Source: Burkholderiales bacterium (lineage in GTDB: Bacteria > Pseudomonadota > Gammaproteobacteria > Burkholderiales > Ga0077523). Taken from it: 64,000 nt of DNA. The notes under the pieces were generated by a model. It saw only the letters and a list, made by a program, of their open reading frames with translations. It was not told the DNA's origin and ran no database searches. Each line of letters starts with the position of its first letter. Position 1 is the first letter of the stretch. The translations under genes and the position numbers were made by a program. Shown here one piece after another: positions 44,663 through 60,975 of this stretch. The stretch is taken from the NCBI GenBank assembly GCA_019745565.1, contig JAIESW010000024.1:129-64128 (forward strand). Reading direction: 5' to 3'.

Positions 44663-44743
44663 TGAGGCATGCTCCAGGATGGGAGTCGCGCGAGTCGTGC
44701 ATGATACTAGGCCGCTTCCCGATCACTCCGGCAAAGGCCTGCC

Positions 44744-45157
44744 ATGTCCGACGTCGTCATCACGGTTGCCGACCTGCGCTTCACCGCCCGCTACGAGGCA
44801 GCGCTCGCCCCTGTCACGTGCCGGGTCTTTCGTAGCGCGCTGCCGTTCGCCAACAAGCTGATCCAGACCCGCTGGAGCGGCGAGGCGGCGTGGGTGCCGC
44901 TGGGCGATCTCGATCTGCGCATCCCGGTCGAAAACGCCACGAGCCATCCCTCGCGCGGCGACATTCTGTTCTATCCGCTGGGGGCGAGCGAGACCGAACT
45001 GCTGTTCCCCTACGGCAGCTGTCGTTTCTCCAGCAAGGTCGGGCAGCTCGCCGGCAATCACTTCCTGACCTTGACCTCCGGGCTGGAACTGTTGACCGAA
45101 CTCGGCCGGCGCGTATTGTGGGAAGGCGCTCAGCCGATTCGCATCGAAGCGGCCTGA
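44744..45157 (+). CDS. DUF3830-like (cyclophilin-like fold) protein
   Basis: 137 aa. MSDVVITVADLRFTARYE… WSGEAAWVPL… GDILFYP pattern as I recall for DUF3830. Confidence 0.5.
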   Translation: MSDVVITVADLRFTARYEAALAPVTCRVFRSALPFANKLIQTRWSGEAAWVPLGDLDLRIPVENATSHPSRGDILFYPLGASETELLFPYGSCRFSSKVGQLAGNHFLTLTSGLELLTELGRRVLWEGAQPIRIEAA

Positions 45158-45179
45158 ACCGCGCGCCGAGGTTTTCCGG

Positions 45180-45755
45180 GTGAAGAGCGCGCGCGAGTTG
45201 CTGGAACGCTATGTCGAAGCGAAGGACGACAACCGTCCGGCGTTGATGGCGCAGGTCTACCGACCGGACGCGGTTCTCAACTTCTCGATCGCCACCGACG
45301 AGATCCGCTTTCCCGGCGAAGTACACGGCGTCGAGGCGATCACCCGTACGCTCATCGTGGATTTCGGCGAGCGCTTTGTGCAGTGCAGAACGTACTACGT
45401 CAGCGAGGCGCCGCCGGCGGACGGCGACGACGGCACGGTGGTCCTGCCCTGGCTGGTGATCATGCGCGAGGCGGCGGGCGGCGCGCTGCGCGTCGGCAAG
45501 GGCCACTATCGTTGGCAGTTCGAGCGCGACGGCGCTGGCCGGCTGTGGGTCCGGGCGATGCACATCTTCATCGTGCGGATGGCCGCGATTCCGCCCGCGG
45601 ATGGCGAAGGGCTGATGACCGCGCGCCCGGAACTGCCCTATCCCTGGCTGCAGCCGGAAGAGTTGCGCCGCGTCGCCGATCGGCTGCTCGAACGCCAGCC
45701 GGAACTGCAGTTCCTGCGCGACTTTCGCGAACCGGTGGCCGCGCCGCACGCGTAG
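45180..45755 (+). CDS. hypothetical protein, NTF2/SnoaL-like N-domain
   Basis: 191-aa ORF, GTG start, high GC3, 22 nt after the DUF3830 gene. No recognisable catalytic motif. Confidence 0.45.
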   Translation: MKSARELLERYVEAKDDNRPALMAQVYRPDAVLNFSIATDEIRFPGEVHGVEAITRTLIVDFGERFVQCRTYYVSEAPPADGDDGTVVLPWLVIMREAAGGALRVGKGHYRWQFERDGAGRLWVRAMHIFIVRMAAIPPADGEGLMTARPELPYPWLQPEELRRVADRLLERQPELQFLRDFREPVAAPHA

Positions 45756-46073
45756 TGCCCTGGTTTTGCGTCGCTCAGATCGGGTGCGATTTATCGAGTT
45801 GACGCACCATCAGTGTGCGACTACCTTATTCCGCAGCAAGCACTAGAACTTGCGCGGCAACACGTTAGGCGCTGGCGCCCGCGTGGCACGTTGCGTGCGA
45901 ATTGCGCTCGTCGTTATACCGAAGGAGTCGGTGGAGTACTGTGCTTCGCGCGTGTTCATCCTCCGCGGGCCGGTTCCTCCCTGCTGGTCCGACTCCCCGG
46001 CTGTCCACCTCGAAGCAGAAAAATCAGCCGGCGTCGGTCGGTACTGAACAATTCGATCCAACGGGAGGGAAGC

Positions 46074-46955
46074 GTGGCGAAGGAAATCTTTTGCGCCTTC
46101 GGCGTCGACGTCGATGCCGTGGCAGGCTGGATCGGTTCCTACGGCGGTGAGGATTCGCCCGACGACATTTCGCGCGGCCTGTTCGCCGGCGAGGTCGGCA
46201 CGCCGCGTCTGGTCAACCTGTTCAAGCGTTTCGGGATCAAGACAACGTGGTTCATCCCGGGCCATTCGATCGAGACCTTTCCCGCGCAGACCGCGATGGT
46301 GGTAGAGGCCGGCCACGAGATCGGCATCCACGGCTACACCCACGAGAATCCGATCTCGATGACGCCGTCGCAGGAAGAAGAGGTCCTCGACAAGTGCATC
46401 GACCTGGTGACCAAGGTGTCGGGCCGTCGCCCGACCGGTTACGTGGCGCCGTGGTGGGAGTTCAGCACCGTCACCAACGAACTGCTGCTCAAGAAGGGCA
46501 TCAAGTACGACCACAGCCTGATGCACAAGGACTTCGAGCCGTACTACGTGCGCGTGGGCGACAAGTGGACGCTCATCGACTACTCGAAGAAGCCGAGCGA
46601 ATGGATGCGCCCGCTGACGCGCGGCGTGGAGACCGACCTCATCGAGATTCCCGGCAGCTGGTACCTCGACGACCTGCCGCCGATGATGTTCATCAAGAAG
46701 GCGCCCAACTCGCACGGCTTCGTCAATCCGCATCATCTCGAGGAGATGTGGCGCGACCAGTTCGACTGGGTCTATCGCGAGATGGACTACGCGGTGTTCA
46801 CCTTCACCATCCATCCGGACGTGTCGGGTCGCCCGCAGGTGCTGTTGATGCTGGAGCGCCTGTTCCACTACATCACCCGACACCCGGGCGTGAAGTTCAC
46901 TACCTTCGACGAGATCGCCAACGACTTCGCCCGCCGCAACCCGCGCAAGAAGTAG
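46074..46955 (+). CDS. polysaccharide deacetylase (NodB-homology/CE4) family amidohydrolase, PuuE/cyclic-imide-hydrolase-like architecture
   Basis: GTG start 6 nt after GGGAGGGA. 293 aa. [13 protein letters not shown]… [12 protein letters not shown] metal-site-like motifs. Track start 45813 trimmed. Confidence 0.7.
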
Positions 46956-46996
46956 CGCTGCGTCCCCCCGAACCGGCAGCTTCAGAAGCGCAAGGC

Positions 46997-48010
46997 ATGG
47001 AAAGCTGGCGCAATCGCAAGACGCTGATCCTGAGCCGTGCCGAGATGATCGGCCTGCTCACGCCCGCGGAATACAACGGGTGCGTCGAGCAGGCCTATCG
47101 CATGCACGGCGAACGGCGCTTCTACATGGATCCGAAGGGCCACATCGTGCTGGACAAGTATCCGGGCGAGTGGGAGGCGATGCCGTCGTACATCGAGGAG
47201 CCGGAAGCGGCGGCCTGCAAGTGGGTGTCGATCCGCGAGCGCAACCGCGAGAAGTTCGACCTGCCCACGGTGTTCTCGATCCTGATCTACACGCACCCGG
47301 AAACCGGTTTTCCGCTGGCCATCTGCGACGGCAGTCATCACACCGTGATGCGCACCGGCTCGGCCGCCGCGGTGTCGACCAAGTGGCTCGCCCGCAAGGA
47401 TTCGAAGATTCTCGCGATCGTCGGCGCCGGACACATGGCGGCCGGCGTGCTCGCCACCTGCAACGAGATCTTCCCGTGGGAGGAAGTGCGCGTCTGGAGC
47501 CGCTCTCAGGGCACGCTCGATCATTTCGTGAAGCAGCAGCAGCCGCTGTTTCCGAAGTTGAAGCTGTTGCCGTCCACCAACATCGAGCAGGTGGTGCGCG
47601 GCGCCGACGTGCTGGTGACGGTGACCCCGGCCCGCGCGCCGATCGTGAAGAACGAGTGGATCACCGAGGGCATGCACATCGCTGCGCTCGGCGCGGACAA
47701 GGGCGGCGATCAGGAACTGGAAGGCACCATCCTCCAGCGCGCCCGCATCTTCGTGGACGACATCCGGCAATGCCGTACCGACGGCGAGATCAACGTGCCG
47801 CTGTCGCAGAAGCTGATCCGGGAACAGGACATCGCCGGAGAGATCGGCGAAGTGATCGTCGGCAAGAAGAAGGGGCGCACCTCCGAGAAGGAGATCACCC
47901 TGTTCGACTCCACCGGCATCGCACTGCAGGATTCGGCAACCATCCCCCTCGAGTACGAGCGGGCCCTGGCCGCCGGAGTGGGTATCGAGAAGAAGATGAT
48001 TTCGACCTAG
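46997..48010 (+). CDS. ornithine cyclodeaminase / mu-crystallin family protein
   Basis: 337 aa. Rossmann fold ILAIVGAGHMAAG and family-typical DSTGIALQD near the C-terminus. Confidence 0.8.
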   Translation: MESWRNRKTLILSRAEMIGLLTPAEYNGCVEQAYRMHGERRFYMDPKGHIVLDKYPGEWEAMPSYIEEPEAAACKWVSIRERNREKFDLPTVFSILIYTHPETGFPLAICDGSHHTVMRTGSAAAVSTKWLARKDSKILAIVGAGHMAAGVLATCNEIFPWEEVRVWSRSQGTLDHFVKQQQPLFPKLKLLPSTNIEQVVRGADVLVTVTPARAPIVKNEWITEGMHIAALGADKGGDQELEGTILQRARIFVDDIRQCRTDGEINVPLSQKLIREQDIAGEIGEVIVGKKKGRTSEKEITLFDSTGIALQDSATIPLEYERALAAGVGIEKKMIST

Positions 48011-48039
48011 TCGTTGTGTGCCCCCAACAGGAGACGATC

Positions 48040-49374
48040 ATGACCGACAAACCGCAGGACGAAAGCTCGATCAACGCGACGACGACCGAGGCCGGCACGC
48101 CGGCCTCGGATGGACGCCGCAAGTTCCTCAAGACCGCTGCCCTCACCGCGGGCGCCGCGGGTGCGGGCATGATCGACGGTTTCCCGCTGGTGTGGTCGCA
48201 GACCACGAAGGACATCAAGCTGGTGCAGGTGGGCGGCTCCTACTCCGCGATCAAGGAGATCGCCGAGCAGGCCACCAAGGATCTCGGCTTCAAGGTCGAG
48301 ATGCAGACCGCGCCGCACGACGCGCTGCTCAACCGGCTGCTCACCCAGCCGCAGTCGATCGACATCGCCGACATCGAGTACTTCTTCCAGCATTTCCTCC
48401 TGCCCAAGGGCACCCTGCACCCGATGGAGGCGAAGAGGATCAAGCTGTGGGACAAGGTGGTGCCGATCTTCAGCAAGGGCGAGTACCCCGACGGGCGCAA
48501 GGTATCGACCCAGGGCGTGCTGCCCTTCGAGGTGCAATACCTCGAGAAGCCCGGCGACAAGAAGTTCGCCACCAAGCCCACCGAGTACATCACCGGCATC
48601 CCGACCGTGTACAACGCCGACACGCTCGGCATCCGCCCTGACCTCGCCAAGCGCAAGATCGAAAGCTGGGCCGAGCTGCTCAATCCGGAATGGAAAGGCA
48701 AGACCTCGATCGTGTCCGTGCCCGGCATCGGCATCATGGATGCTGCCATGGCCATCGAAGCGCGCGGCGACCTGAAGTACAAGGACAAGGGCAACATGAC
48801 CAAGGAGGAAATCGACAAGACCATCGAGATCCTCATCAAGGCGAAGAAGGCCGGGCAGTTCCGCGCCTTCTGGGGTACCTTCGACGAGTCGGTCAACCTC
48901 ATGGCCGCGGGCGAGACGGTGGTGCAATCGATGTGGTCGCCGGCGGTGACCGCGGTGCGTTCGCGCGGCATCCCCTGCTTCTATGCACCGCTCAAGGAAG
49001 GCTACCGTGCGTGGGCCAGCTGCATCGCGCCGATGGCGCACCTGAAGGGGCCCAAGCTCGACGCGGCCTACGAGTACATCAACTGGTACATGAGCGGCTG
49101 GCAGGCCGGCTTCATCGCGAAACAGGGCTACTACAGCTCGGTGCCGGAGATGGCCAAGAAGTTCATGACCGAGGACGAGTACGGCTTCTGGTACGAGGGC
49201 AAGGCCGCCAAGGGCGACATCAAGGACCCGTACGGCAACCTTATGGAGAAGGCGGGTGCGGTGCGCGACGGCGGCGCCTTCTGGGACCGCATGGGCAAGG
49301 TCGCCTGCTGGAACACGCTGATGGACGAGAACCGCTACATGGTCAGCAAGTGGAACGAGTTCCTCGCATCTTAA
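48040..49374 (+). CDS. ABC transporter substrate-binding protein (PotD/PotF-like family 1) with Tat signal
   Basis: 444 aa. Twin-arginine DGRRKFLKTAALTAGAAGAG. SD GGAGA upstream. Confidence 0.8.
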   Translation: MTDKPQDESSINATTTEAGTPASDGRRKFLKTAALTAGAAGAGMIDGFPLVWSQTTKDIKLVQVGGSYSAIKEIAEQATKDLGFKVEMQTAPHDALLNRLLTQPQSIDIADIEYFFQHFLLPKGTLHPMEAKRIKLWDKVVPIFSKGEYPDGRKVSTQGVLPFEVQYLEKPGDKKFATKPTEYITGIPTVYNADTLGIRPDLAKRKIESWAELLNPEWKGKTSIVSVPGIGIMDAAMAIEARGDLKYKDKGNMTKEEIDKTIEILIKAKKAGQFRAFWGTFDESVNLMAAGETVVQSMWSPAVTAVRSRGIPCFYAPLKEGYRAWASCIAPMAHLKGPKLDAAYEYINWYMSGWQAGFIAKQGYYSSVPEMAKKFMTEDEYGFWYEGKAAKGDIKDPYGNLMEKAGAVRDGGAFWDRMGKVACWNTLMDENRYMVSKWNEFLAS

Positions 49375-49468
49375 TGACCATCTGAAGCAGCAAACGCCGG
49401 CGGCCTCGCCCGATTCCGCGAGTGCTGCCGGTGCTTCACCCCAAGAGCACAAGAAGGGCATCCACGCA

Positions 49469-50329
49469 GTGAAGCTCTCCCGCAGTCAGACCTCCGCCCT
49501 GCAGGTTGCACCCATGGCGCTGGTGCTCCTGCTTTTCTTCGGCGTACCGCTGCTGGTGGTGGTCGCCTTCAGCTTCTTCGACTACGACGGCATCAACACC
49601 AACCCGGCATTCGTGTGGGCTAACTACGCGGAGCTGTTCGGCTCGAAGGTCACGCTGGCGCTGTACCTGAAGACGCTTTATTTCGCGGCGATCGTCTGGG
49701 TGATCACGCTGCTGATCGGGTTCACGGTCTCGTACTTCCTGGTCTTCCACGTGCGCAGCGTCCTGTGGCAGATGGGGCTGTTCCTGCTGTGCACAGTGCC
49801 CTTCTGGACCTCGAACATCATCCGCATGATCTCGTGGATCCCGTTCCTCGGGCGCAACGGCATCTTCAACCAGGCCTTGATGGGGGCGGGGATCACCCAC
49901 GAGCCGCTGGAGTTTCTGTTGTTCTCGGATTTCGCGGTGATCGTCGCTTACGTCCACCTGTTCACGCTGTTCATGATCGTGCCGATCTTCAACTCGATGG
50001 CGCGCATCGACCGGTCGCTGATCGAGGCCGCCCGCGACGGCGGCAGCAGCGGCGGGCGCATCATCTGGGAGATCGTGGTGCCGCTGTCCAAGACCGGCAT
50101 CGCGCTCGGCTCGATCTTCGTCATCACCCTGGTGATGGGCGACTTCTTCGTGGTCAAGGTCATGAGCGGCAGCCACAGCGCCTCGGTGGCGATGGCCATG
50201 TCGAACCAGATCGCGATGGTCCAGTATCCGCCCGCCGCCGCCAGCGCGGTGCTGTTGCTCATCATCGTGTCACTCATGGTCGCGGCGATCCTGCGCGTGG
50301 TCGACGTGCGCAAGGAACTCGCGAGGTAG
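49469..50329 (+). CDS. ABC transporter permease (PotB-like)
   Basis: 286 aa, 6 TM, EAA-loop region SLIEAARDGG. Confidence 0.85.
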   Translation: MKLSRSQTSALQVAPMALVLLLFFGVPLLVVVAFSFFDYDGINTNPAFVWANYAELFGSKVTLALYLKTLYFAAIVWVITLLIGFTVSYFLVFHVRSVLWQMGLFLLCTVPFWTSNIIRMISWIPFLGRNGIFNQALMGAGITHEPLEFLLFSDFAVIVAYVHLFTLFMIVPIFNSMARIDRSLIEAARDGGSSGGRIIWEIVVPLSKTGIALGSIFVITLVMGDFFVVKVMSGSHSASVAMAMSNQIAMVQYPPAAASAVLLLIIVSLMVAAILRVVDVRKELAR

Positions 50330-50333
50330 CCCG

Positions 50334-51209
50334 ATGGCCGGCCCTGCCCCCGCCCAGCCGCAGTTCGGCAAACGGCCGAAGAGTTTCTACTTCCTGGCCG
50401 GTTTCTTCGCCCTGTTCGTGGCTTTCCTGTACGGGCCCATGTCCGCCATCTACATCCTGTCGTTCCAGGGGCCCACCGGCGGACTGACCTTCCCCATGCG
50501 CGGTGTGTCGCTGCATTGGTTCCACGCGCTGTTCGCGCAGGAGCGAACCGGGGATTTCGCCGGCGCATTCGCCCGCTCGCTGTTGCTGGCGGCGCTGGTG
50601 CTCAGCGTGACGGTGGTCATGTCGATCCTCGCCGGCATGGCCTTCCGGCGCCGCTTCTTCGGTTCGACCTTCGTGTTCTACCTGGCGATCGCCAGTCTGA
50701 TCATGCCCGGCATCCTGGTCGGCCTGGGCATCGGCCTCACTTTCCAGCTGTTCGAGATCCAGACGTCCTGGTTCACTTCGGCGCTCGGCGCACAGCTCAC
50801 CTGGACGTTGCCGTTCGGCCTGCTGATCATGTTCGCGGTACTGAGCCGGTTCAACCGCGCCTTCGAGGAAGCGGGGCGCGACCTGGGTGCCAGCAACTGG
50901 CAGATCTTCTGGCTGGTGGTGGTGCCCATCCTCCTGCCCGGCATCATCGGCGTTGCGCTGTTCGGCTTCACGCTCTCCTACGACGAGTTTCCGCGCACGC
51001 TGCTGACCGCCGGTGCACAGAACACGCTGCCCATGGAGATCTGGGGGATGACTACCAACGTGACCTCGCCGGCTCTGTACGCGTTGGGTACCGTAACCAC
51101 CGTGGTCTCCTTCATCGCGATTACGCTGGCGTTGGGTTCGATCGCGTTGATCCAACGCCGTCGGGCGCGACGCCCGGCACCCGAGACGCAATCCGGCCCG
51201 GCCGCGTGA
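50334..51209 (+). CDS. ABC transporter permease (PotC-like)
   Basis: 291 aa, multi-TM, EAA loop FEEAGRDLGAS. Confidence 0.85.
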   Translation: MAGPAPAQPQFGKRPKSFYFLAGFFALFVAFLYGPMSAIYILSFQGPTGGLTFPMRGVSLHWFHALFAQERTGDFAGAFARSLLLAALVLSVTVVMSILAGMAFRRRFFGSTFVFYLAIASLIMPGILVGLGIGLTFQLFEIQTSWFTSALGAQLTWTLPFGLLIMFAVLSRFNRAFEEAGRDLGASNWQIFWLVVVPILLPGIIGVALFGFTLSYDEFPRTLLTAGAQNTLPMEIWGMTTNVTSPALYALGTVTTVVSFIAITLALGSIALIQRRRARRPAPETQSGPAA

Positions 51210-51246
51210 TGCGAACGCGACCGCCGCGCAAGTCACCGTTTGTGGA

Positions 51247-52386
51247 GTGAGCATGGAGCCAGGAAAGAACAGCGCATCTGCCCGTGGCGCGATCGAGTTG
51301 GTGAGCGTCACCAAGCGCTTCGGCGACACGGTGGCGGTGCGCAATATCGATCTCAAGATCCCGGGCGGGGCCTACTGCTGCCTGCTCGGCCCGTCCGGCT
51401 GCGGCAAGACGACCATCCTGCGCATGATCGCCGGACACGAGGATCCCACCGACGGCGATGTGCTGATCGACAACGAGAACGTGGTGGGCAAGGCGCCCGT
51501 GGAGCGCGGCACGGCGATGATGTTCCAGAGCTACGCGTTGTTCCCGCATCTCACTTGTCGCGACAACGTCGCTTTCAACCTCAAGGTGCGCGGCGTGGCG
51601 AAGGCGGAACGCCAGGAACGTGCACTGGAGATGCTGGCGCGGGTGCGCATGCGCGAATTCGCCGATCGCCTGCCCGCGCAATTGTCCGGCGGCCAGCAGC
51701 AGCGCATCGCGCTCGCCCGCTCGCTGATCACGAATCCGCGCGTGCTGCTGCTCGACGAACCGCTGTCGGCGCTCGACGAGTTCCTGCGCCTGCAGATGCG
51801 CGGTGAACTGAAACGGATCCAGACCGAGTTCGGCATCAGTTTCATCCACGTGACCCATACGCAGATGGAGGCGATCGCGCTGGCCGACATGGTTGTCGTG
51901 ATGGATCAGGGGCGCATCGAGCAGGCGGACTCGGCGCGCCACGTCTTCGAACGGCCGCGCACGCCCTATGTCGCGCGCTTCATCGGCGGGCAGAACGTGA
52001 TGACGGGCAAGGTGCTGGAGCGACGCTCGGGTGCGGTGCTGATCGATACCGGGGGCAAGCAGTTGCTGGTGAGCGCACCCGAGACGCTGCCCGAGATCGG
52101 TGCGTCGTTCGGCATCGCCGTCCGGCGCGACCGCGTCCGGCTGCAGCGCAGCGAGGGTGCACCCGCGGGCTCCACGCTGAACTCGATCGGCGGGCGAGTG
52201 AGCGCGCTGGAGTACCAGGGTTCATGGCTCAAGATAACCATCGAGGATGCAGGCGGCGAAGACTTCGTCGTGAACGAGGCCGATAGCACCTTCTTCGCCA
52301 CACCGGTGGAAGTGGGTGACATCGTGAGTGCCAGCTGGGCACCCGAGGAAGTGCACTACCTGTCCGCTGCATCGGTGTCACGCTGA
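51247..52386 (+). CDS. ABC transporter ATP-binding protein (PotA-like)
   Basis: Walker A GPSGCGKTT, signature LSGGQQQR, Walker B LLLDEP, C-terminal TOBE-like domain. True start may be ATG 51253. Confidence 0.88.
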   Translation: MSMEPGKNSASARGAIELVSVTKRFGDTVAVRNIDLKIPGGAYCCLLGPSGCGKTTILRMIAGHEDPTDGDVLIDNENVVGKAPVERGTAMMFQSYALFPHLTCRDNVAFNLKVRGVAKAERQERALEMLARVRMREFADRLPAQLSGGQQQRIALARSLITNPRVLLLDEPLSALDEFLRLQMRGELKRIQTEFGISFIHVTHTQMEAIALADMVVVMDQGRIEQADSARHVFERPRTPYVARFIGGQNVMTGKVLERRSGAVLIDTGGKQLLVSAPETLPEIGASFGIAVRRDRVRLQRSEGAPAGSTLNSIGGRVSALEYQGSWLKITIEDAGGEDFVVNEADSTFFATPVEVGDIVSASWAPEEVHYLSAASVSR

Positions 52387-52697
52387 TGTGCGGCCTGTGC
52401 GGCGTGTTCCTGACGGAAACGAGCTGGAGCGACGCCTCGGTCGGCTCGGTCGAGACCGGGGCGCGCACGCGCCGGCATGAACGCCTGCACCGCGTGGCGC
52501 TCGCCAATCGCGTCCTCAAGCCCTTCGGATCCAGGCTGTCGGACTGGAACGGCGTGTCCTATCTGGTGAGCGGTCCGACCGGACAGACGTCCATCGTTCC
52601 GAGCGTCGCGTCGGTATGGCCGGTGGTCGAGCAATTGCGCAAGGTGCGTCTCGATCCGCTCGACGAAGGTCTGATCGAAGCGCTCGAGCGCGACTGA
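52386..52697 (+). CDS. hypothetical 103-aa protein beginning MCGLCG
   Basis: ATG shares one nt with the potA-like stop (TGATG) and ends 8 nt before the COG0523 gene. GC3-rich codon usage throughout. No family recognised. Confidence 0.55.
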   Translation: MCGLCGVFLTETSWSDASVGSVETGARTRRHERLHRVALANRVLKPFGSRLSDWNGVSYLVSGPTGQTSIVPSVASVWPVVEQLRKVRLDPLDEGLIEALERD

Positions 52698-52705
52698 CCG
52701 CGACG

Positions 52706-53731
52706 ATGAGTTCCGCACGAACGCTCACGCCGGTAAACGTCCTCACCGGTTTTCTCGGGAGCGGCAAGACCACGCTGCTGCAACGCCTGCTGCGTTCACC
52801 CCGGCTCGATCGCACGGCCGTGCTGATCAACGAGTTCGGCGAGGTCGGACTGGATCATCTGCTGGTGCAGCGGGTCGACGATGCCGTCGTGCTGCTGGAG
52901 AGCGGTTGCATCTGTTGCACCATCCGTGGCGATCTGACCGGTGCGTTGCGCGGCTTGCTTGACCGGCGCGACCGGGTCGAGATTCCCGCCTTCGATCGCG
53001 TGGTGATCGAAACCACCGGCCTGGCCGATCCCGGACCGATCCTGTACACGCTGCTGAACGAACCGGTGCTGCAACACCATTTCCAGCTGGGCAACGTCAT
53101 CACGACGGTGGACGCTGTGAACGCCGCGCTGCACCTGTCGAAGAATCCCGAAGGCATGAAGCAGGTGGCAGCCGCCGATCACCTGCTGGTCACGAAGACC
53201 GACCTCGCCAGCGACGAGCAGATTGCCGCGGTGCGCGCAGTGCTCGCACAGGTGAATCCTTCGGCGCATGTACGCGACGCCATCGACGAGCCGCTCGATG
53301 TCGACGGCCTGCTCGACGTGCGTCCGCCGAAGTCAGCGCCGGCCTTCGTTCCTGCCGGTGACGCGGGCGCGACCGACACGCTGCACGCATTGCGCAGGCA
53401 CAGCCAGGACATTTCCAGTTTCAGCCTGGTGCTCGACGAGCCGCTGGACTGGACCGCCTTCGGCGTCTGGTTGAGTCTGCTGCTGCATCGGTACGGCGAC
53501 GACGTGTTGCGCGTGAAGGGCATCCTGAGCGTGCAGGGCAGCGCTGCCCCGGTATTCATGAATGCCGTGCAGCACGTGGTGCATCCGCCGCAGCATCTGG
53601 AGACCTGGTCGACCGAAGATCGTCGATCGCGGATCGTGTTCATCACGCGCGGCATCGATCATGGGCGGCTGCGACGATCGCTCGAAGCGTTTTGCCGCCT
53701 GCGCGTGGCGGAGCTGTCGGTCTCGGCCTAG
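52706..53731 (+). CDS. COG0523 (CobW/YjiA/ZigA-type) G3E-family GTPase metallochaperone
   Basis: P-loop GFLGSGKTTLL, metal motif GCICCT, ETTGLADP. 341 aa. Track start trimmed to MSSARTL. Confidence 0.85.
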   Translation: MSSARTLTPVNVLTGFLGSGKTTLLQRLLRSPRLDRTAVLINEFGEVGLDHLLVQRVDDAVVLLESGCICCTIRGDLTGALRGLLDRRDRVEIPAFDRVVIETTGLADPGPILYTLLNEPVLQHHFQLGNVITTVDAVNAALHLSKNPEGMKQVAAADHLLVTKTDLASDEQIAAVRAVLAQVNPSAHVRDAIDEPLDVDGLLDVRPPKSAPAFVPAGDAGATDTLHALRRHSQDISSFSLVLDEPLDWTAFGVWLSLLLHRYGDDVLRVKGILSVQGSAAPVFMNAVQHVVHPPQHLETWSTEDRRSRIVFITRGIDHGRLRRSLEAFCRLRVAELSVSA

Positions 53732-53765
53732 CGCCGTCCTTGGAACCCTGAGGAGATTCTGCACC

Positions 53766-55154
53766 ATGGCATCCGCGGACAGCACCAAGACGTCGGGCAT
53801 CCGTGCGAACCGCTTGCCCGAAGAGGTGTACGCACGCAACTTCGCTGATGCACATCCGGCGCTCACGCCGAACCAGGCGCTGGTGGAGAGCGACCGCTGT
53901 CTGTTCTGCTACGACGCACCGTGCGTACAGGCCTGTCCCACCGGGATCGACATTCCCAGCTTCATCCGCAAGATCGCCACCGGCAACATCAAGGGGTCGG
54001 CCCAGGACATCCTGAGCGAAAACGCGTGCGGCGCGCTGTGCGCGCGGGTCTGTCCGACCGAAGTGCTGTGCGAAGGCAGCTGCGTGCGTAATCTCCAGGA
54101 GCACAAGCCGGTGGCGATCGGTGCCTTGCAGCGCTACGCCACGGACTGGGTGTTCGATCGTGGCGTCCAGGTCTTTCAGCGCGCGGCCGACACCGGTCGT
54201 CGCATCGCTGTCGTCGGTGGCGGGCCGGCGGGGCTCTCCTGTGCGCATCGTCTTGCGACCCTGGGACACTCGGTGACCGTGTTCGAAGCGCACGACAAGC
54301 TCGGCGGCTTGAACGAATACGGCGTGGCCGCCTACAAGGTGGCGGGCGGGATCGCCCAGCGCGAAGTTGACTACCTGCTCGAAGTGGGCGGGATCGAGGT
54401 CCGGTTCGGGCAACGCTTGGGGAAGGAGCTGTCGCTGGCCGCGTTGCGGCGCGACTTCGACGCGGTGTTCCTCGGCATCGGACTTGGCGCGGTCAATGCA
54501 CTGGGCATCGACGAGCCGGCCATCGACGGCGTGTACGACGCCATCGACTACATCGCGGACCTGCGCCAGAGCCAGGCGCTGGCGACGCTGCCGGTCGGCC
54601 GCAGTGTGGTGGTGATCGGCGGCGGCATGACCGCCATCGACATCGCGACGCAGATCCGGCGCCTGGGCGCCGAAGACGTCACCATCGTCTATCGGCGCGG
54701 TCCGGAACAGATGGGTGCGAGCACCAAGGAACAGGATTGGGCTCAAACCAACGGCGTGCGCATCAAGCATTGGGCGCGGCCCACCGGTTTGCTGTCGGAT
54801 GGTGGCCATCTCGCCGGCGTAGCGTTCGAGTACACCCGACTGGACGACCAGCAACGCCTCGCCGGCACTGGCGAGCGCTTCGAGTTGCCCGCGGACATGC
54901 TGTTCAAGGCCATCGGCCAGGTGCTGGTGCGTGACTCGCTCGATGGTCAGGTCGGGTTGCTCGACACTGCGTCGGGACGCATCGCCGTGGATGCGGAGCG
55001 CAGGACCTCGCTGCCCGGGGTGTGGGCCGGCGGTGACTGTGTTGCAGGGGGCCGCGATCTCACCGTCGAAGCGGTGCAGGACGGCAAGCTCGCCGCGCTG
55101 TCGATCGACCGGGCCTTGCGTCCGGCGCAGGCTTCAGGAGTTCGCCATGGCTGA
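53766..55154 (+). CDS. preT: NAD-dependent dihydropyrimidine dehydrogenase subunit PreT (GltD-like)
   Basis: 462 aa. N-terminal Fe-S Cys motifs (CLFCYDAPCVQACP; CARVCP) and FAD/NAD folds VVGGGPAGLSCA and VIGGGMTAID. Confidence 0.85.
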   Translation: MASADSTKTSGIRANRLPEEVYARNFADAHPALTPNQALVESDRCLFCYDAPCVQACPTGIDIPSFIRKIATGNIKGSAQDILSENACGALCARVCPTEVLCEGSCVRNLQEHKPVAIGALQRYATDWVFDRGVQVFQRAADTGRRIAVVGGGPAGLSCAHRLATLGHSVTVFEAHDKLGGLNEYGVAAYKVAGGIAQREVDYLLEVGGIEVRFGQRLGKELSLAALRRDFDAVFLGIGLGAVNALGIDEPAIDGVYDAIDYIADLRQSQALATLPVGRSVVVIGGGMTAIDIATQIRRLGAEDVTIVYRRGPEQMGASTKEQDWAQTNGVRIKHWARPTGLLSDGGHLAGVAFEYTRLDDQQRLAGTGERFELPADMLFKAIGQVLVRDSLDGQVGLLDTASGRIAVDAERRTSLPGVWAGGDCVAGGRDLTVEAVQDGKLAALSIDRALRPAQASGVRHG

Positions 55155-56469
55155 TCTCAGCAGTTCCTTCGTCGGCATCCGCTCGCCCAATCCGTTCTGG
55201 CTCGCCTCCGCGCCGCCGACCGACAAGGCATACAACGTCAACCGTGCTTTCGAAGCCGGCTGGGGTGGCGTGGTGTGGAAGACGTTGGGCGAGGACCCGC
55301 CCATCGTCAACGTGAGCGGTCCGCGCTACGGCGCTTTGCTCGGGACCGCGCGCAACCTGATCGGCTTCAACAACATCGAACTGATCACCGATCGGCTGCT
55401 GGACGTGAACCTGCGCGAGATCCGGCAAGTGAAGCGCGACTGGCCCGACCGCGCGCTCGCGGTGTCGCTGATGGTTCCTTGCGAAGAGCGCGCGTGGAAA
55501 ACCATCCTGCCGATGGTGGAAGACACCGGTGCCGACGGGATCGAACTCAACTTCGGCTGTCCGCACGGCATGTCGGAGCGGGGCATGGGTTCCGCGGTGG
55601 GTCAGGTGCCGGAGTACGTGGAGATGGTGGTGCGCTGGTGCAAGGAAAACTCGCGCCTGCCCGTCATCGTCAAGCTCACACCGAACGTGACCAATATCCT
55701 GGCGCCCGCGCGTGCCGCGCAACGCGGTGGCGCCGACGCTGTCTCGCTCATCAACACGGTGAGCGCGATCATGAGCGTCGATCTGGACGGCATGACGCCC
55801 AGTCCGAGCGTGGGAGGCCGCGGTGCGCATGGCGGCTACTGCGGTCCGGCGGTGAAGCCCATCGCCTTGCGCATGCTGGGCGAGATCGCGCGCGATCCGG
55901 AATGCCGCGGTGTGCCCTTGTCCGGGATCGGCGGCATCGCCACGTGGCGCGACGCCGCCGAGTTCATGGCGTTGGGCGCATCCAACGTGCAGGTATGCAC
56001 TGCCGCCATGGTGTACGGCTTCAAGGTGGTGGAAGACATGATCGACGGTCTCGTGAACTGGATGGATGCCAAGGGTTATCGCTCCGTCCCGGAGTTCGTC
56101 GGCAAGGCTGTGCCCAACTTCGTGGACTGGGAGCAGCTCGATCTCAACTACACGGTCAAGGCGCGCATCGACCAGAGCCTGTGCATCCGGTGCGGCCGCT
56201 GCCACATCGCGTGCGAGGATACGTCGCACCAGGCGATCACGCGCGAGCGCGACGGCAAGCGGCATTTCGAAGTCATCGATGCCGAATGCGTGGGCTGCAA
56301 CCTGTGCGTGAACGTATGTCCGGTAGATCAGTGCATCACGCTCGAGTCGCTGCCGGTGGGTACGCCGGATCCGCGGACCGGTCAGCCGGTGCGCAGCTAT
56401 GCGAACTGGACCTCGCACCCGAACAATCCGGCGCAGCGCGCGCCTGCCGCGACGGCGCCGGTCAAGTGA
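55147..56469 (+). CDS. preA: NAD-dependent dihydropyrimidine dehydrogenase subunit PreA (DHOD-like plus 2x[4Fe-4S])
   Basis: 440 aa. ELNFGCPHGM and C-terminal ferredoxin motifs CIRCGRCHIAC and CVGCNLCVNVCP. 8-nt overlap with preT. Confidence 0.88.
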   Translation: MADLSSSFVGIRSPNPFWLASAPPTDKAYNVNRAFEAGWGGVVWKTLGEDPPIVNVSGPRYGALLGTARNLIGFNNIELITDRLLDVNLREIRQVKRDWPDRALAVSLMVPCEERAWKTILPMVEDTGADGIELNFGCPHGMSERGMGSAVGQVPEYVEMVVRWCKENSRLPVIVKLTPNVTNILAPARAAQRGGADAVSLINTVSAIMSVDLDGMTPSPSVGGRGAHGGYCGPAVKPIALRMLGEIARDPECRGVPLSGIGGIATWRDAAEFMALGASNVQVCTAAMVYGFKVVEDMIDGLVNWMDAKGYRSVPEFVGKAVPNFVDWEQLDLNYTVKARIDQSLCIRCGRCHIACEDTSHQAITRERDGKRHFEVIDAECVGCNLCVNVCPVDQCITLESLPVGTPDPRTGQPVRSYANWTSHPNNPAQRAPAATAPVK

Positions 56470-56526
56470 ACCCGTGGAACCTGGTGATGCGCGCGCCAGG
56501 CGCGTGACGAGTCGGAGGAAATCGAG

Positions 56527-57765
56527 ATGTCGCTCACCATCAATGCGGAACGGCTGTGGGACTCCCTCATGGAGCTTGCCAAGATCGGCGCCACGGACAA
56601 GGGCGGAGTACGCCGCCTGGCGTTGACCGATCTCGACCGTCAGGGGCGCGACCTGGTGATCCGCTGGTGCAAGGAGGCCGGTTGCACCGTCAAGGTGGAC
56701 GCCGTGGGCAATATCTTCGCGCGGCGTGCCGGGCAGGACGACAGCCTCCCGCCGATCATCACCGGGAGCCATATCGACACCCAGCCCTCCGGCGGCAAGT
56801 TCGATGGCAACTACGGCGTTCTTTCGGGCCTCGAGGTGATCCGCACGCTGAACGACAAGGGCGTCAAGACGCGGGCGCCGATAGAGGTGGCGGTGTGGAC
56901 CAACGAGGAGGGCTCGCGCTTCACGCCGGTGATGATGGGGTCCGGTGTCTTCGTCGGTGCGTTCCCGCTCGACATGGTGCTGCAGCGTCCTGACATCGAC
57001 GGCATCACGGTGGGCACCGCGCTGAACCAGATCGGTTATGCGGGCACCGAGCCGGTGGGTGGTCGTCCGGTCGGGGCCTATTTCGAAGCGCACATCGAAC
57101 AGGGGCCGATCCTCGAGGACGAGGACAAGGTGGTGGGGGTCGTGGTGGGTGCGCTGGGCTTGCGGTGGTACGACGTGGTGATCACCGGCCAGGATGCTCA
57201 TGCGGGTCCGACACCCATGCGCTTGCGCAAGGATGCGCTGCTGGTGGCGTCTCGCATCGTGCACGAGGTCAACGCCATCGCCTATCGCTTCCAGCCGAAC
57301 GGCCGCGGAACGGTGGGCTTCATGCAGGTGAAACCCAACTCGCGCAACGTCATTCCGGGCGAAGTGCGATTCTCGGTCGATCTGCGGCACGCGGAGGACG
57401 CCGAGCTCGAACGCATGGAACAGGAGATGCGCGCAGCCTGCGATCGCCTGGCCCAGGCGGAGCATTGCACGGCGAACGTCGAGCGCGTGGCCAACTACCC
57501 GGCATGCAAGTTCGACGAGAGCTGCGTGGCGCAGGTGCGCAAGGGCGCGCAGGATGCGGGATTCAGCCACATGGATATAGTCAGCGGTGCCGGGCACGAC
57601 GCGATCTACATGGCTCGCGTCTGCCCGACGAGCATGATCTTCGTGCCCTGCGAAGGCGGCATCAGCCACAACGAGATCGAGAACGCCAAGGCGGAACATC
57701 TGGCGGCCGGGTGCAACGTACTGCTGCACGCCATGGTCGAGCGCGCAGGCATCGCCCATCGATGA
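56527..57765 (+). CDS. M20-family Zn amidohydrolase: N-carbamoyl-amino acid / beta-ureidopropionase / allantoate amidohydrolase type
   Basis: 412 aa. GSHIDTQPSGGKFDG and WTNEEGSRF motifs of the AmaB/AllC group. Confidence 0.82.
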   Translation: MSLTINAERLWDSLMELAKIGATDKGGVRRLALTDLDRQGRDLVIRWCKEAGCTVKVDAVGNIFARRAGQDDSLPPIITGSHIDTQPSGGKFDGNYGVLSGLEVIRTLNDKGVKTRAPIEVAVWTNEEGSRFTPVMMGSGVFVGAFPLDMVLQRPDIDGITVGTALNQIGYAGTEPVGGRPVGAYFEAHIEQGPILEDEDKVVGVVVGALGLRWYDVVITGQDAHAGPTPMRLRKDALLVASRIVHEVNAIAYRFQPNGRGTVGFMQVKPNSRNVIPGEVRFSVDLRHAEDAELERMEQEMRAACDRLAQAEHCTANVERVANYPACKFDESCVAQVRKGAQDAGFSHMDIVSGAGHDAIYMARVCPTSMIFVPCEGGISHNEIENAKAEHLAAGCNVLLHAMVERAGIAHR

Positions 57766-58748
57766 AACCGAAGGTCGTCCTGCTCGCCACCGGCGGCACC
57801 ATCGCCTCGCGCTACGACCCGGCGCTGGGCCGAACCGTCGCCTCGCAACGCGCCGAGGATCTGCTGAAGATGCTGCCGCAGGCCGGCGAGGTCGTGGACC
57901 TCGAAGTCATCGATCATGCGACGGTGGCGAGCTTCGACATGACGGTGCAGTTCGCCTTCGGTCTGACACGGCGCATCAATGAACTGGCCGCGCGCGCCGA
58001 CGTCGCCGGGATCGTCGTGACCCACGGCACCGATACCATGGAGGAAACGAGCTATCTCGCGGATCTCCTGCTCGCATCCGACAAGCCCGTGGTGTTCACG
58101 GGCGCGCAGCGTGCCCACGACGATCCGCAGGCCGACGGACCGCTCAATCTGCTGAACGCGTTGCGCGTGGCGGCGGCGTCTGCGGCGCGCGGCCTCGGCG
58201 CGGTGGTGTGCTTCAACGGCACCATCCACGCGGCGCGCGACGTGACCAAGGCGCATACCAGCGCGGTGGAGACGTTCCAGTCGCCGGATCACGGACCGCT
58301 GGGTGAAGTGGATGGCGCGAGTGTCGTGGTGCACCGCCGGCCGGGCCTGCGCCGCAGCTTCACGGTCGACCGCCTCGAGGAGAGGGTCACGCTGTTCCGG
58401 CTGGCTCTCGGCGTCGATCTCGAAGACCTGCGCGCGATCGTCGCCCGCAAACCCGCGGGCATCGTGATCGAAGCCTTCGGACGCGGCAACGGGCCCAGTG
58501 CGCTGACCCCGATCGTGCGCCAGGCGACCGAGGACGACATCGTCGTATGCGTGGCGTCGCGCTGCGGTACCGGGCGCGTGAAACCCGTTTACGGCGGGGG
58601 CGGCGGCGGGCGCGACCTGGAGGATGCCGGCGCCCGCTTCGCCGGCGATTTGCGCGGACCGAAGGCGCGGCTGGCGCTGATGGTTCTGCTGTCGTCGGCC
58701 GACACCCGCACGCGCGTCAACGAAGTGCTCGCCCAACTCGCTCCCTGA
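57762..58748 (+). CDS. L-asparaginase family protein
   Basis: 328 aa. LATGGTIAS nucleophile motif and HGTDTMEET. ATGA overlap with the carbamoylase stop. Confidence 0.82.
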   Translation: MKPKVVLLATGGTIASRYDPALGRTVASQRAEDLLKMLPQAGEVVDLEVIDHATVASFDMTVQFAFGLTRRINELAARADVAGIVVTHGTDTMEETSYLADLLLASDKPVVFTGAQRAHDDPQADGPLNLLNALRVAAASAARGLGAVVCFNGTIHAARDVTKAHTSAVETFQSPDHGPLGEVDGASVVVHRRPGLRRSFTVDRLEERVTLFRLALGVDLEDLRAIVARKPAGIVIEAFGRGNGPSALTPIVRQATEDDIVVCVASRCGTGRVKPVYGGGGGGRDLEDAGARFAGDLRGPKARLALMVLLSSADTRTRVNEVLAQLAP

Positions 58749-58786
58749 CGGGAGCCTCTGCCTTTCGCTCGAACGAGGAGACCCAA

Positions 58787-60199
58787 ATGGCTGCAACCCT
58801 GATCAGGAACGGCAGGATCGTCACCGCGGTGGACGACTATACGGCGGACATTCTCGTGAAGGACGGCAAGGTCGAAACCATCGGTCGCAACGTCCAGGTT
58901 GGCGGCGATGTCGAGGTGCACGACGCAGCGGGACTGCTGGTGCTGCCCGGCGGCGTGGACGTGCACACCCACCTCGACTGGGAGTTCGGACCGACGTACA
59001 CCGTGGACACCTTCGGCACCGGCACCAAGTCCGCGGCGTTCGGCGGAACGACGACGCTCATCGATTTCTGCAATCAGACCGCCGGCTTCAGTCCGCTGAA
59101 GGGCCTCGAGAACTGGCACAAGCGCCGCGAGAGTGCGTGCGTGGACGTCGGCGCGCACATGATCATGCTGGACGTGAACGATCAGAGCCTGATCGACATG
59201 AAGACGCTCATCGCCAAGGAGGGGGTGACGAGCTTCAAGCTGTTCATGGCCTATCCGGGTGTGCTGATGGTGGACGATGGTGCCTTGTTCAAGGCCATGC
59301 GCGTGGCCGGCGGCAACGGCGCCATGACCTGCATCCACGCCGAGAACGGGCCGGTGATCCAGGTACTGGTGCAGGAGGCGGTCGCGCAAGGTCTGAAGGC
59401 ACCGAAGTACCACGCGAGCACGCGGCCGTCCATTCTCGAAGGCGAGGCGACGCACCGCGCGATCCGGCTCGCGGAACTCGCCGGAGCGCCGCTCTACATC
59501 GTACATCTGTCCGCGGGCGAAGCGCTGCATGCGGTGACCGAGGCGCGCGACCGCGGCATTCCGGTGCATGCCGAGACCTGCCCGCACTACCTGTTCCTCA
59601 CTGCGGAGGAGTACGAGCGGCCGGGTTTCGAAGGCGCCAAGTACGTCATGACCCCGCCGCTGCGCGACCACCACCACCAGCACCAGCTCTGGCGCGGCCT
59701 GAAGACCGACGACCTGCAGGTGGTCTCCACGGACCATTGCCCGTTCTGCTTCAACGAACAGCCCTACGGCATCAAGTACTCCAAGCAACAGGGCATCGAC
59801 AGCTTCAGCAAGATTCCGAACGGCGCGCCCGGCGTGGAGACGCGGCTGCCGCTGATCTTCGACGGCGCGGTCACCAAGAACGGCATGTCGATCAACCGCT
59901 TCGTCGAGATCACGTCGACCGCACCGGCCAAGCTCTTCGGGCTGTTCCCGCGCAAGGGCACCATCGCGGTCGGTTCCGACGGCGACATCGTGCTGTTCGA
60001 TCCGAAGGAACAATGGACCATCCGTGCCGCAGAGCAGCACAGCAGGATCGACTACACGCTGTTCGAAGGTCGCCCGGTCACCGGACGCGTGAAGAAGGTG
60101 TTCCTGCGCGGTCAATGCATCGTGGATGGGGCGAACTGGCGCGGGCGCGAGGGCATGGGCCAGTACCTGCGGCGGGCCGAGTCCGGCGCGATACGCTGA
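58787..60199 (+). CDS. dihydropyrimidinase / D-hydantoinase
   Basis: 470 aa. GGVDVHTHLD metal motif and SFKLFMAY (carboxylated Lys context). Track start trimmed. Confidence 0.88.
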   Translation: MAATLIRNGRIVTAVDDYTADILVKDGKVETIGRNVQVGGDVEVHDAAGLLVLPGGVDVHTHLDWEFGPTYTVDTFGTGTKSAAFGGTTTLIDFCNQTAGFSPLKGLENWHKRRESACVDVGAHMIMLDVNDQSLIDMKTLIAKEGVTSFKLFMAYPGVLMVDDGALFKAMRVAGGNGAMTCIHAENGPVIQVLVQEAVAQGLKAPKYHASTRPSILEGEATHRAIRLAELAGAPLYIVHLSAGEALHAVTEARDRGIPVHAETCPHYLFLTAEEYERPGFEGAKYVMTPPLRDHHHQHQLWRGLKTDDLQVVSTDHCPFCFNEQPYGIKYSKQQGIDSFSKIPNGAPGVETRLPLIFDGAVTKNGMSINRFVEITSTAPAKLFGLFPRKGTIAVGSDGDIVLFDPKEQWTIRAAEQHSRIDYTLFEGRPVTGRVKKVFLRGQCIVDGANWRGREGMGQYLRRAESGAIR

Positions 60200-60204
60200 A
60201 GGCT

Positions 60205-60229
60205 CGCCGCCGGCTGCCGGCCGGCGGCG
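60205..60229. terminator. hairpin between the convergent dihydropyrimidinase and small secreted-protein genes
   Basis: CGCCGCCGGC-TGCCG-GCCGGCGGCG. No T-run. Confidence 0.4.
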
Positions 60230-60241
60230 CGGTCTGCCCGG

Positions 60242-60592
60242 CTATTTCTTCTTCCAGCGGCTCGCGCACTGCACCGGCGAGTTGCGGATGAGCATCTTCG
60301 GCTCGCGCGCATCGGCCCAATGGATGACGTCGTGGGATGTGCCCGAGGTGCTGTTCTTCACCGTCGGCTCCTGGGCGGCCTGCACGTCGCCCTCGATTAC
60401 GTCGTCGACCTTCGGCACCGGCGGTGTCTTCACCGAGAACAGCCCGTAGGCGTAGTTGGGGTCGCCGTCGGGCAGCTTAAGGACGAAATAGCCGCAAGTC
60501 GGGTCAGCCCAGCTCACCACGCCCTCGGCCGCGAATCCCGCGGCGGGCAGCAGACAAGCCAATGCACCAGCACACAGCAACCGCTTCTTCAT
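60242..60592 (-). CDS. small secreted protein of unknown function
   Basis: 116 aa. Signal peptide MKKRLLCAGALACLLPAAGFA. Lys-rich C-terminus. Confidence 0.5.
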   Translation of the reverse strand: MKKRLLCAGALACLLPAAGFAAEGVVSWADPTCGYFVLKLPDGDPNYAYGLFSVKTPPVPKVDDVIEGDVQAAQEPTVKNSTSGTSHDVIHWADAREPKMLIRNSPVQCASRWKKK

Positions 60593-60975
60593 TCGCGTTC
60601 TCCTCCCTCCGGACCACCGCGCCGCAACATGGACGCGCCGTGAATCCTACCTTGACTTATGTAGGTGACATCGAAAGAATTCGGCGCAGCAGGCGTGAAC
60701 AAAGTGCACCCGACGTCAGATCGGCAAGCACGGGCAGGCATCGAGGGGAGGTTCAGTACTTTTTCCTGGACCGGTCGGCGATCCGCCGTGCATGCGGCTG
60801 CCGCCGCGTCGGTTCGTCGCCGCTACGACGGCGGGCGGACCCCTTCTTGACCTGAGCCCTAGGCGCAGTGCGATGACGCGCGCGGGCACGCGTGCCCCGG
60901 GGGACCCGCAGGCACCGACCCGCTCGACCAGGCCGAAAGTCCGTGGTTCGAGTCAACTCAGGAGGGGTCGTCAAC

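Follow-up and report, generated by a model that had tools for sequence, protein, structure and literature searches.

The locus described here raises the question of what a cell would do with a single array of genes in which the enzymes of reductive pyrimidine and hydantoin catabolism stand among further hydrolases, an importer and a metallochaperone. The array occupies positions 46074-60199 of a stretch of 64,000 nucleotides from a Burkholderiales bacterium (contig JAIESW010000024.1; the whole stretch is called the window below, and its genome G000). A preliminary description had read the array as 13 co-directional genes on the plus strand that merge the pyrimidine pathway with additional functions, and had suggested a different or broader cyclic amide or ureide as substrate. 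Because the G+C content of the window is about 65%, raw lists of open reading frames (ORFs) were noisy; genes were modelled from third-position G+C, scans against Pfam and NCBIfam, and inspection of start sites. This gene model bore out the 13 genes and their common direction.

In our reading, to which we give a probability of roughly 0.6, the array is an operon that scavenges nitrogen from small cyclic amides, with two hydrolytic branches, a shared ATP-binding cassette (ABC) importer and a shared promoter region. In the first branch an enzyme of the HpPgdA/cyclic-imide-hydrolase family would open a succinimide- or glutarimide-like cyclic imide to a half-amide. A small protein with an MCxLCG motif and a COG0523 GTPase would presumably load the metal site of this imidase, and an asparaginase-family enzyme would hydrolyse the half-amide to a dicarboxylate and ammonium. 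In the second branch PreT/PreA would reduce uracil or thymine, a dihydropyrimidinase (DHP) would open the ring of this product, or that of a hydantoin or dihydropyrimidine taken up by the importer, and an M20 carbamoylase would release CO2, ammonium and a (beta-)amino acid. An OCD-family dehydrogenase would probably oxidise or reduce the amino- or imino-acid product; deamination or cyclisation of an amino acid, put forward earlier as the end of the pathway, may be its role. The earlier suggestion about the substrate thus holds in part: the range appears broader than that of the Pyd pathway, with a cyclic imide as the best-supported extra class, and a single exotic compound is not required.

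The putative ring-opening enzyme and its conserved partners

The first gene of the array (46074-46955; this and all other features are on the plus strand unless stated otherwise) encodes a metallohydrolase of 293 aa with a NodB fold. The protein matched PDB 3qbu/4ly4, which is HP0310 ('PgdA') of H. pylori, at E 1e-152 and 70% identity over 293 of 293 residues without gaps. All eight active-site residues are kept (D12, D14, H86, H90, V124, D199, D200 and H247); in HpPgdA, D14, H86 and H90 are metal ligands and D12 and H247 are ligands of the catalytic water, with D199, D200 and V124 also belonging to the site (PMC9304392, suppl. Fig. 9). By its sequence the protein is cytoplasmic, since it possesses no signal peptide and its N-terminus leads directly into the first catalytic motif. 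The allantoinase PuuE was considered as a relative and rejected. The TIGR03212 model gave 72 bits against a cut-off of 424.6, and the protein retains the Asp-His-His metal triad, in place of which PuuE has Glu-His-Trp. It was therefore filed under the HpPgdA/cyclic-imide-hydrolase family, of which it is a member, and imidase activity is predicted for it.

HpPgdA was found to be inactive on polysaccharides, acetyl-polyamines, acetyl-dipeptides and allantoin. It has an occluded pocket that fits a small molecule, it lacks a signal peptide, and its neighbours encode 'polyamine importers' (PMC3084791). A further member of the family is HxnM of A. nidulans, which shares 64% identity with the cyclic imide hydrolase AAY98498 from P. 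putida and for which 3qbu is the nearest structure (PMC9304392). On the basis of gene deletion and metabolite analysis, HxnM opens 3-hydroxypiperidine-2,6-dione, whereupon an amidase releases the nitrogen (PMC9304392). The likeness of the P. putida enzyme to the protein in the window is drawn through HxnM and 3qbu. The HpPgdA family comprises at least 7,940 database proteins at E<=1e-40; the database names are all 'polysaccharide deacetylase'. The family is labelled near-universally as cell-wall deacetylases, yet the solved structure and the failed assays indicate a small-molecule substrate.

The small MCGLCG protein (103 aa; 52386-52697) and the COG0523 G3E GTPase of the metallochaperone type (52706-53731) are encoded next to each other further downstream. 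Scanning the COG0523 protein against one genome per species yielded 80 loci with 48-74% identity. A homologue of the small ORF lay immediately 5' of the COG0523 gene in 75 of them, and in 67 of these 75, which come from several phyla, a NodB homologue (69-93% identity) was found just 5' of the small ORF. The genes for the NodB protein, its small MCxLCG companion and the COG0523 GTPase form a conserved module of three, referred to below as the trio.

The small protein had no match among Pfam and NCBIfam models. A profile search of 1.8 billion proteins returned 603 cluster representatives at E<=1e-3, nearly all of them 95-125 aa long, and the residues M1, C2, C5, W14, W78, D90 and P91 are invariant in the family. 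An AlphaFold (AF2) model showed a mean pLDDT of 80.8 overall, a confident core (residues 29-103) and a disordered N-terminus bearing the cysteines; a Foldseek search of the PDB gave no match below E 0.1. In place of His13, a nearly invariant residue of the family that belongs to an HW motif following the MCxLCG start, the window copy has Ser and the copy of locus L001 has Asn, with C2, C5 and W14 kept in both. The GTPase scored 157.6 bits for PF02492 (cobW) and 85.5 bits for PF07683 (CobW_C) and contains the motifs GFLGSGKT (Walker A) and GCICCT (CxCC). It stayed below the cut-offs of the named equivalogs, with 195/361 bits for CobW, 131/332 for ZigA and 114/600 for the YjiA type. We presume that the small protein is the partner of the GTPase, and the imidase would be the client of both. 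COG0523 GTPases mostly lack known clients; here the HpPgdA-family enzyme, its two conserved partners and a candidate second-step amidase share an operon with well-understood ring-opening enzymes and an importer.

The company kept by the trio was tallied in the 75 loci from tblastn maps of reference proteins and from Pfam tallies; an attempt to cluster the six-frame ORFs of all 80 loci with one another was dropped because overlapping ORFs merged unrelated genes. A Pot-like solute-binding protein (SBP) was the most frequent companion (30/75 loci), followed by a pair of short-chain dehydrogenases/reductases (SDRs; 26/75), a GntR regulator and HyuA (23/75 each), HyuB (17/75), an amidase-signature enzyme (16/75), an asparaginase (9/75), DHP (5/75), an M20 enzyme (4/75) and OCD (3/75). 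The amidase-signature enzyme and the asparaginase never occurred in the same locus. An amide hydrolase from one or other of two unrelated families thus recurs after the ring-opening enzyme, as a two-step conversion of an imide to a half-amide and then to an acid and ammonium predicts. A common alphaproteobacterial layout is found on a Thioclava plasmid, where a divergent GntR gene is followed by genes for an ABC ATPase, two permeases, two SDRs, an SBP and an ATPase, and then by NodB, small protein, COG0523, a second SBP and asparaginase.

The asparaginase homologue of the window (57762-58748) possesses both Pfam domains (asparaginase N and C) with the catalytic motifs TGGTIA and HGTDT, and has no signal peptide. 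It scored 160 for TIGR00519 (cut-off 260.5) and 193 for TIGR00520 (cut-off 314.3), which is below both type I and type II. We propose that this cytoplasmic amidohydrolase acts as the half-amidase.

The probable pyrimidine branch and the two forms of the island

The genes for the NAD-dependent dihydropyrimidine dehydrogenase follow the COG0523 gene. The PreT-type subunit (53766-55154) carries Fer4_20 and Pyr_redox_2 domains, and the adjacent PreA (55147-56469) reached 716 bits for the equivalog NF006183 (cut-off 335). The M20 N-carbamoyl-amino-acid/beta-ureidopropionate amidohydrolase (56527-57765) scored 443 bits for TIGR01879 (cut-off 204). Among structures it was close to the N-carbamoyl-beta-alanine amidohydrolase 8c46 (436 bits) and the L-carbamoylase 8apz (426 bits), and far from the allantoate amidohydrolase 1z2l (183 bits) and the ureidoglycolate amidohydrolase 4pxe (203 bits). 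The dihydropyrimidinase/D-hydantoinase (58787-60199; TIGR02033 equivalog, 567.6 bits, cut-off 393.25) is the final gene of the array and lies 3' of the asparaginase gene, which amends the gene order given earlier. It belongs to a lineage that we call DHP1.

The OCD/mu-crystallin family NAD(P) enzyme (46997-48010; PF02423, 275 bits) scored 333.7 bits for the archaeal alanine dehydrogenase model TIGR02371, below the cut-off of 409.15, and its nearest PDB entries were the A. fulgidus alanine dehydrogenase structures 1omo/1vll (234 bits). Its gene adjoins the NodB gene in the loci L001, L003, L090, L099, L101 and L103. It is also found in the alphaproteobacterial metagenome-assembled genome (MAG) locus L009 (407-6304), as part of a divergently oriented operon that also encodes hydantoin racemase and a HyuA/HyuB of the ATP-dependent hydantoinase/oxoprolinase type; this operon adjoins a NodB-small-COG0523-asparaginase-DHP-carbamoylase set.

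An allantoin or ureide substrate had rested on the PuuE-like fold, on NCBIfam names ('allantoate amidohydrolase') and on a class-V aminotransferase gene upstream of the array. It was rejected: the PuuE score is far below the cut-off, the M20 enzyme is nearer to carbamoylases, HpPgdA is inactive on allantoin, and the aminotransferase is syntenic only in the genus-mate G020. The aminotransferase and a 2-hydroxyacid dehydrogenase are encoded at 42489-44662 on the minus strand, divergently from the DUF3830 gene described below, and this restricted synteny places them probably outside the island.

The block NodB-OCD-SBP-permease-permease-ATPase-small-COG0523-carbamoylase-asparaginase-DHP recurred with 65-96% protein identity in at least six other loci from Burkholderiales MAGs and metagenome contigs. 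It exists in two forms. In L003, L103/L104 and L001 the island is without preTA. In the window, in L090 of the genus-mate G020, in L099/L100 and in L101 preTA is present, always at the same junction. A check of the order of the 13 genes in other genomes showed that L090 possesses all of them together with the upstream genes. In L001 the junction at which preTA sits in the window is occupied by a gene for a pyrroloquinoline quinone (PQQ)-dependent dehydrogenase (L001:12659-14692).

The genomes of L001 and L003 each contain a separate preA (82% identical) beside a different DHP gene, whose product is 37-38% identical to the island DHP. The coexistence of a preTA-less island with a separate preA-DHP locus indicates that the role of the island exceeds standard pyrimidine breakdown. 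Among 25 genomes of the window genus, NodB was found in four and PreA in seven, and five genus-mates carry preT-preA-DHP2, with a DHP2 that is 51-55% identical to the island DHP. In G017, the only genus-mate in which that upstream region was examined, a CN-hydrolase gene precedes preT. The window genome G000 is without this CN-hydrolase and without DHP2; its PreA, DHP and M20 carbamoylase are single-copy and all encoded in the island. Because the island holds the only copies of these three enzymes, uracil and thymine are very likely genuine substrates. With its counterparts in the islands of other genomes the island DHP shared 78-94% identity, but with the DHPs of canonical preTA operons only 37-55%. 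In phylogenetic trees the PreA sequences of islands clustered apart from canonical PreA (support 92/90); the PreT tree was less resolved.

The simplest history that these comparisons suggest is that the array is a mosaic. A pre-existing, horizontally moving cyclic-amide island (NodB-OCD-ABC-small-COG0523-carbamoylase-asparaginase-DHP) would have captured preTA, and in the G000/G020 lineage the island would then have taken over pyrimidine catabolism from the ancestral operon. In G000 the island preTA would have replaced the CN-hydrolase-preT-preA-DHP2 operon typical of the genus. The earlier notion of a merger was therefore well founded: the island carries preTA in some loci and lacks it in others, and the additional genes are more than chance neighbours. 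On this history the locus offers a clear case of an accessory island that took up a core catabolic pair, preTA, with displacement of the ancestral hydrolases.

Importer, gene spacing and putative promoter region

The importer is encoded between the OCD gene and the small ORF. It consists of a periplasmic solute-binding protein (48040-49374; SBP_bac_8) with a twin-arginine translocation (Tat) signal whose RRKFLK motif is present in the sequence, two BPD_transp_1 permeases, one PotB-like (49469-50329) and one PotC-like (50334-51209), and a PotA-like ATPase (51253-52386; ABC_tran and TOBE_2 domains). It had been described as a PotABCD-type importer. The architecture is indeed Pot-like, but all scores for Pot equivalogs were below their cut-offs. 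The ATPase reached 326 bits against cut-offs of 355.6-482 (355.6 for TIGR01187), and the permeases reached 131 bits for the PotB model (cut-off 348) and 106 bits for the PotC model (cut-off 326). The SBP was not matched in NCBIfam or the PDB. With these scores the reading as a polyamine importer was dropped. A paralogue of the island SBP (56% identity) is encoded elsewhere in the genome (G000 contig C85, about 98346-99755).

The genes are packed closely, as had been stated. The overlaps at three junctions proved exact, namely 1 nt between the ATPase gene and the small ORF, 8 nt between preT and preA, and 4 nt between the carbamoylase and asparaginase genes, and every remaining gap within the 13 genes measures 4-94 nt. 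A terminator scan of 44600-61000 gave four weak sites against 8.1 expected by chance, none of them convincing; two lay upstream of the array and one downstream. A PQQ dehydrogenase is encoded just downstream of the island (60976-62664).

Upstream of the NodB gene, and separated from it by a leader of 318 nt, are genes for a DUF3830 protein (44744-45157, 137 aa; PF12903, 108 bits) and a SnoaL/NTF2-like protein (45180-45755, 191 aa; SnoaL_4). A homologue of the SnoaL-like gene (44-61% identity) lay just 5' of the NodB gene in all six island loci compared (L090, L099, L001, L003, L101 and L103), and it is kept upstream even where a GntR gene intervenes. DUF3830 was found upstream in three of the six, in L090 and L099 (81-82% identity) and in L001 (60%). 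The DUF3830 protein gave no PDB or NCBIfam match and the SnoaL-like protein no NCBIfam match. A DUF3830 homologue adjoins the DHP gene in L079. The transcription unit probably starts with these two companions and would then comprise 15 genes rather than 13.

The leader contains two conserved elements. At 45884-45898 lies a sigma-54-like -24/-12 element, TGGCACGTTGCGTGC; all five type A loci, which are the window, L090, L099, L001 and L003, keep the pattern TGGCAC-N5-xTGC at a distance of 150-197 nt 5' of the start of the NodB gene. About 85 nt upstream of it (45802-45818) is an inverted repeat, CGCACC-N5-TGTGCG, inside TTGACGCACC...GTGCGACTA. The repeat is clear in four of the five loci (window, L099, L001 and L003), the copy in L090 being divergent and unmatched by the pattern search, and the intergenic sequence around it is otherwise divergent among the loci. 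It is a candidate for an NtrC-like enhancer, an operator site or a part of a sigma-70-like promoter; it resembles an NtrC-type enhancer site. The genome encodes two RpoN and one NtrC scoring above cut-off. From these elements the island promoter is probably sigma-54-dependent, and nitrogen control of the island is plausible.

In a second island type the place of the long leader is taken by a GntR/FCD gene in divergent orientation, together with a TCTATATTCTATAGA palindrome (L101:9839-10000; L103:4106-4267). In the window no regulator gene was found adjacent to the array, and the window genome has no close homologue of the GntR/FCD regulator, the best match being 24-29% identical.

Rival readings and known catabolic systems

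Several observations weigh against the reading of two branches under one nitrogen-responsive promoter. The role of the OCD enzyme is its weakest link, and the two branches leave the constant SnoaL-like and frequent DUF3830 companions unexplained, a point that also favours a single pathway as discussed below. The mutual exclusion of amidase and asparaginase is only suggestive, as it amounts to 0 cases observed against about 2 expected by chance in loci that are related. As for the promoter, a strict search with the sigma-54 consensus (1 mismatch) missed the leader element, which deviates from the textbook -12 box, and a sigma-70-like -35/-10 pair is an alternative reading of the inverted repeat. 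Since the second island type uses a GntR/FCD regulator, control need not follow nitrogen status. Finally, HP0310 has been reported to show acetyl-esterase and peptidoglycan-related activity (PMC3688963).

On another view the NodB protein would deacetylate peptidoglycan or a polysaccharide, in line with the annotation of HP0310, and would have no functional tie to the neighbouring catabolic genes. Genetic and crude-extract data on HP0310, including esterase activity on acetyl-xylan and p-nitrophenyl acetate (PMC3688963; background in PMC3084791), and the uniform database names speak for it. We nevertheless regard it as highly improbable: the protein has no signal peptide, purified HpPgdA with its occluded pocket did not act on polysaccharides, its close homologues have been shown to be cyclic imidases or bear that name, and in dozens of genomes the NodB gene stands in a tight operon with importers and amidases. 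An ordinary Pyd operon is less easily set aside, though we still consider it improbable. The ABC system would then import uracil or thymine, the COG0523 protein would supply zinc to DHP and carbamoylase, which are both metal-dependent, and the NodB, OCD and asparaginase proteins would be side-activities or hitch-hikers. That the sole PreA, DHP and M20 carbamoylase of the genome are in the island, that PreA and DHP exceed their equivalog cut-offs, and that the homologous PP_4034-4038 set of P. putida serves for uracil and hydantoin as nitrogen sources (bioRxiv 10.1101/2021.12.09.472016) would all fit. It is disfavoured by the preTA-less islands in genomes that keep a separate preA-DHP locus, by the COG0523 and small-protein genes, which track the NodB gene (67/75 loci) and not DHP, and by the asparaginase gene standing beside the trio in loci without DHP and carbamoylase (L061, L072, L076 and L077).

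Somewhat better placed, but in our view still unlikely, is a single linear pathway dedicated to one heterocycle, such as an amino- or carbamoyl-substituted imide, hydantoin or dihydropyrimidine. The hydrolases would act in series, the OCD enzyme would finish the product (for example from asparagine to aspartate), and preTA would be a later add-on. The movement of NodB, OCD, ABC, carbamoylase, asparaginase and DHP as one block, the distinctness of the island DHP lineage from canonical DHPs, and the same set in L009 together with hydantoin racemase and HyuA/HyuB argue in its favour. However, no known natural compound suits every step, and the trio mostly occurs without DHP, carbamoylase and OCD. 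Moreover, the capture of preTA and the loss of the canonical hydrolases in G000 argue that ordinary dihydropyrimidines can be handled by the DHP and carbamoylase of the island. We therefore favour the two-branch operon.

A wider claim can be made only tentatively. The island might constitute a complete and previously undescribed bacterial route of cyclic-imide assimilation, with an ABC importer, an imidase of the HpPgdA family, an asparaginase-family 'half-amidase', and an imidase metal centre matured by a new small Cys protein and a dedicated COG0523 protein, fused in some Burkholderiales with reductive pyrimidine catabolism under sigma-54 nitrogen control. If this were true, most PgdA-like 'polysaccharide deacetylases' would turn out to be imidases that serve in catabolism and are the defined clients of COG0523 proteins. 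In any case the island, with natural variants that possess or lack preTA, provides a testable physiological setting for the HpPgdA family and for its two partners, the COG0523 GTPase and the small Cys protein.

How does the island compare with systems already described? The HP0310 (PgdA)-HP0312 locus of H. pylori contains a 70% identical enzyme with an identical active site and, close by, a gene of the COG0523 family; HP0312 has been assigned to COG0523 (PMC2770081) and was used as a context anchor (PMC3084791). In contrast to the island, that locus has been read as encoding a peptidoglycan deacetylase and virulence-related factor, and no catabolic partners were described. HxnM and HxnN of nicotinate catabolism in A. 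nidulans (PMC9304392) share the proposed chemistry, in that an HpPgdA-family imidase opens the ring and an amidase then frees the nitrogen. The imide is made there by an SDR, and the SDR pair may do likewise in the rhizobial and Thioclava trio operons. The fungal system differs in being eukaryotic, in having no COG0523 or small-protein partners and in using an amidase-signature protein as the second enzyme, whereas the window is without SDR or hydroxylase genes. The fixed position of a COG0523 gene beside the gene for one metalloenzyme recalls Nha3, the COG0523 protein for Fe-type nitrile hydratase (PMC2770081), but here the putative client is a hydrolase of the CE4 fold and the gene for an additional invariant small Cys protein stands in between.

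The imidase and half-amidase of Blastobacter sp. perform the chemistry that we propose, from cyclic imide to half-amide and on to amide hydrolysis, and P. putida's cyclic imide hydrolase is of the same sequence family as the NodB protein, as judged via HxnM and 3qbu. For these imide systems no gene cluster, transporter or metallochaperone was described in the literature searched. The second step in Blastobacter is catalysed by a described half-amidase, whereas here it would fall to an asparaginase-family protein. With hydantoin-utilisation (hyu) clusters the island shares a D-hydantoinase, a carbamoylase and a transporter, to which the relative L009 adds racemase and HyuA/HyuB; classical hyu clusters possess neither the imidase trio nor an OCD enzyme or asparaginase of this kind. 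Pyd clusters have PreT/PreA, dihydropyrimidinase/D-hydantoinase and M20 carbamoylase genes adjacent to one another, as in the island. Examples are PreT/PreA of E. coli and PP_4034-PP_4038 of P. putida KT2440 (hyuC, permease, pydB and pydXA), the latter being nitrogen-controlled (bioRxiv 10.1101/2021.12.09.472016). The island differs in having an ABC importer in place of the NCS1 permease and a DHP of a separate lineage. Its pathway genes are also interleaved with those of the imidase trio and with the OCD and asparaginase genes, and preTA itself is dispensable for it.

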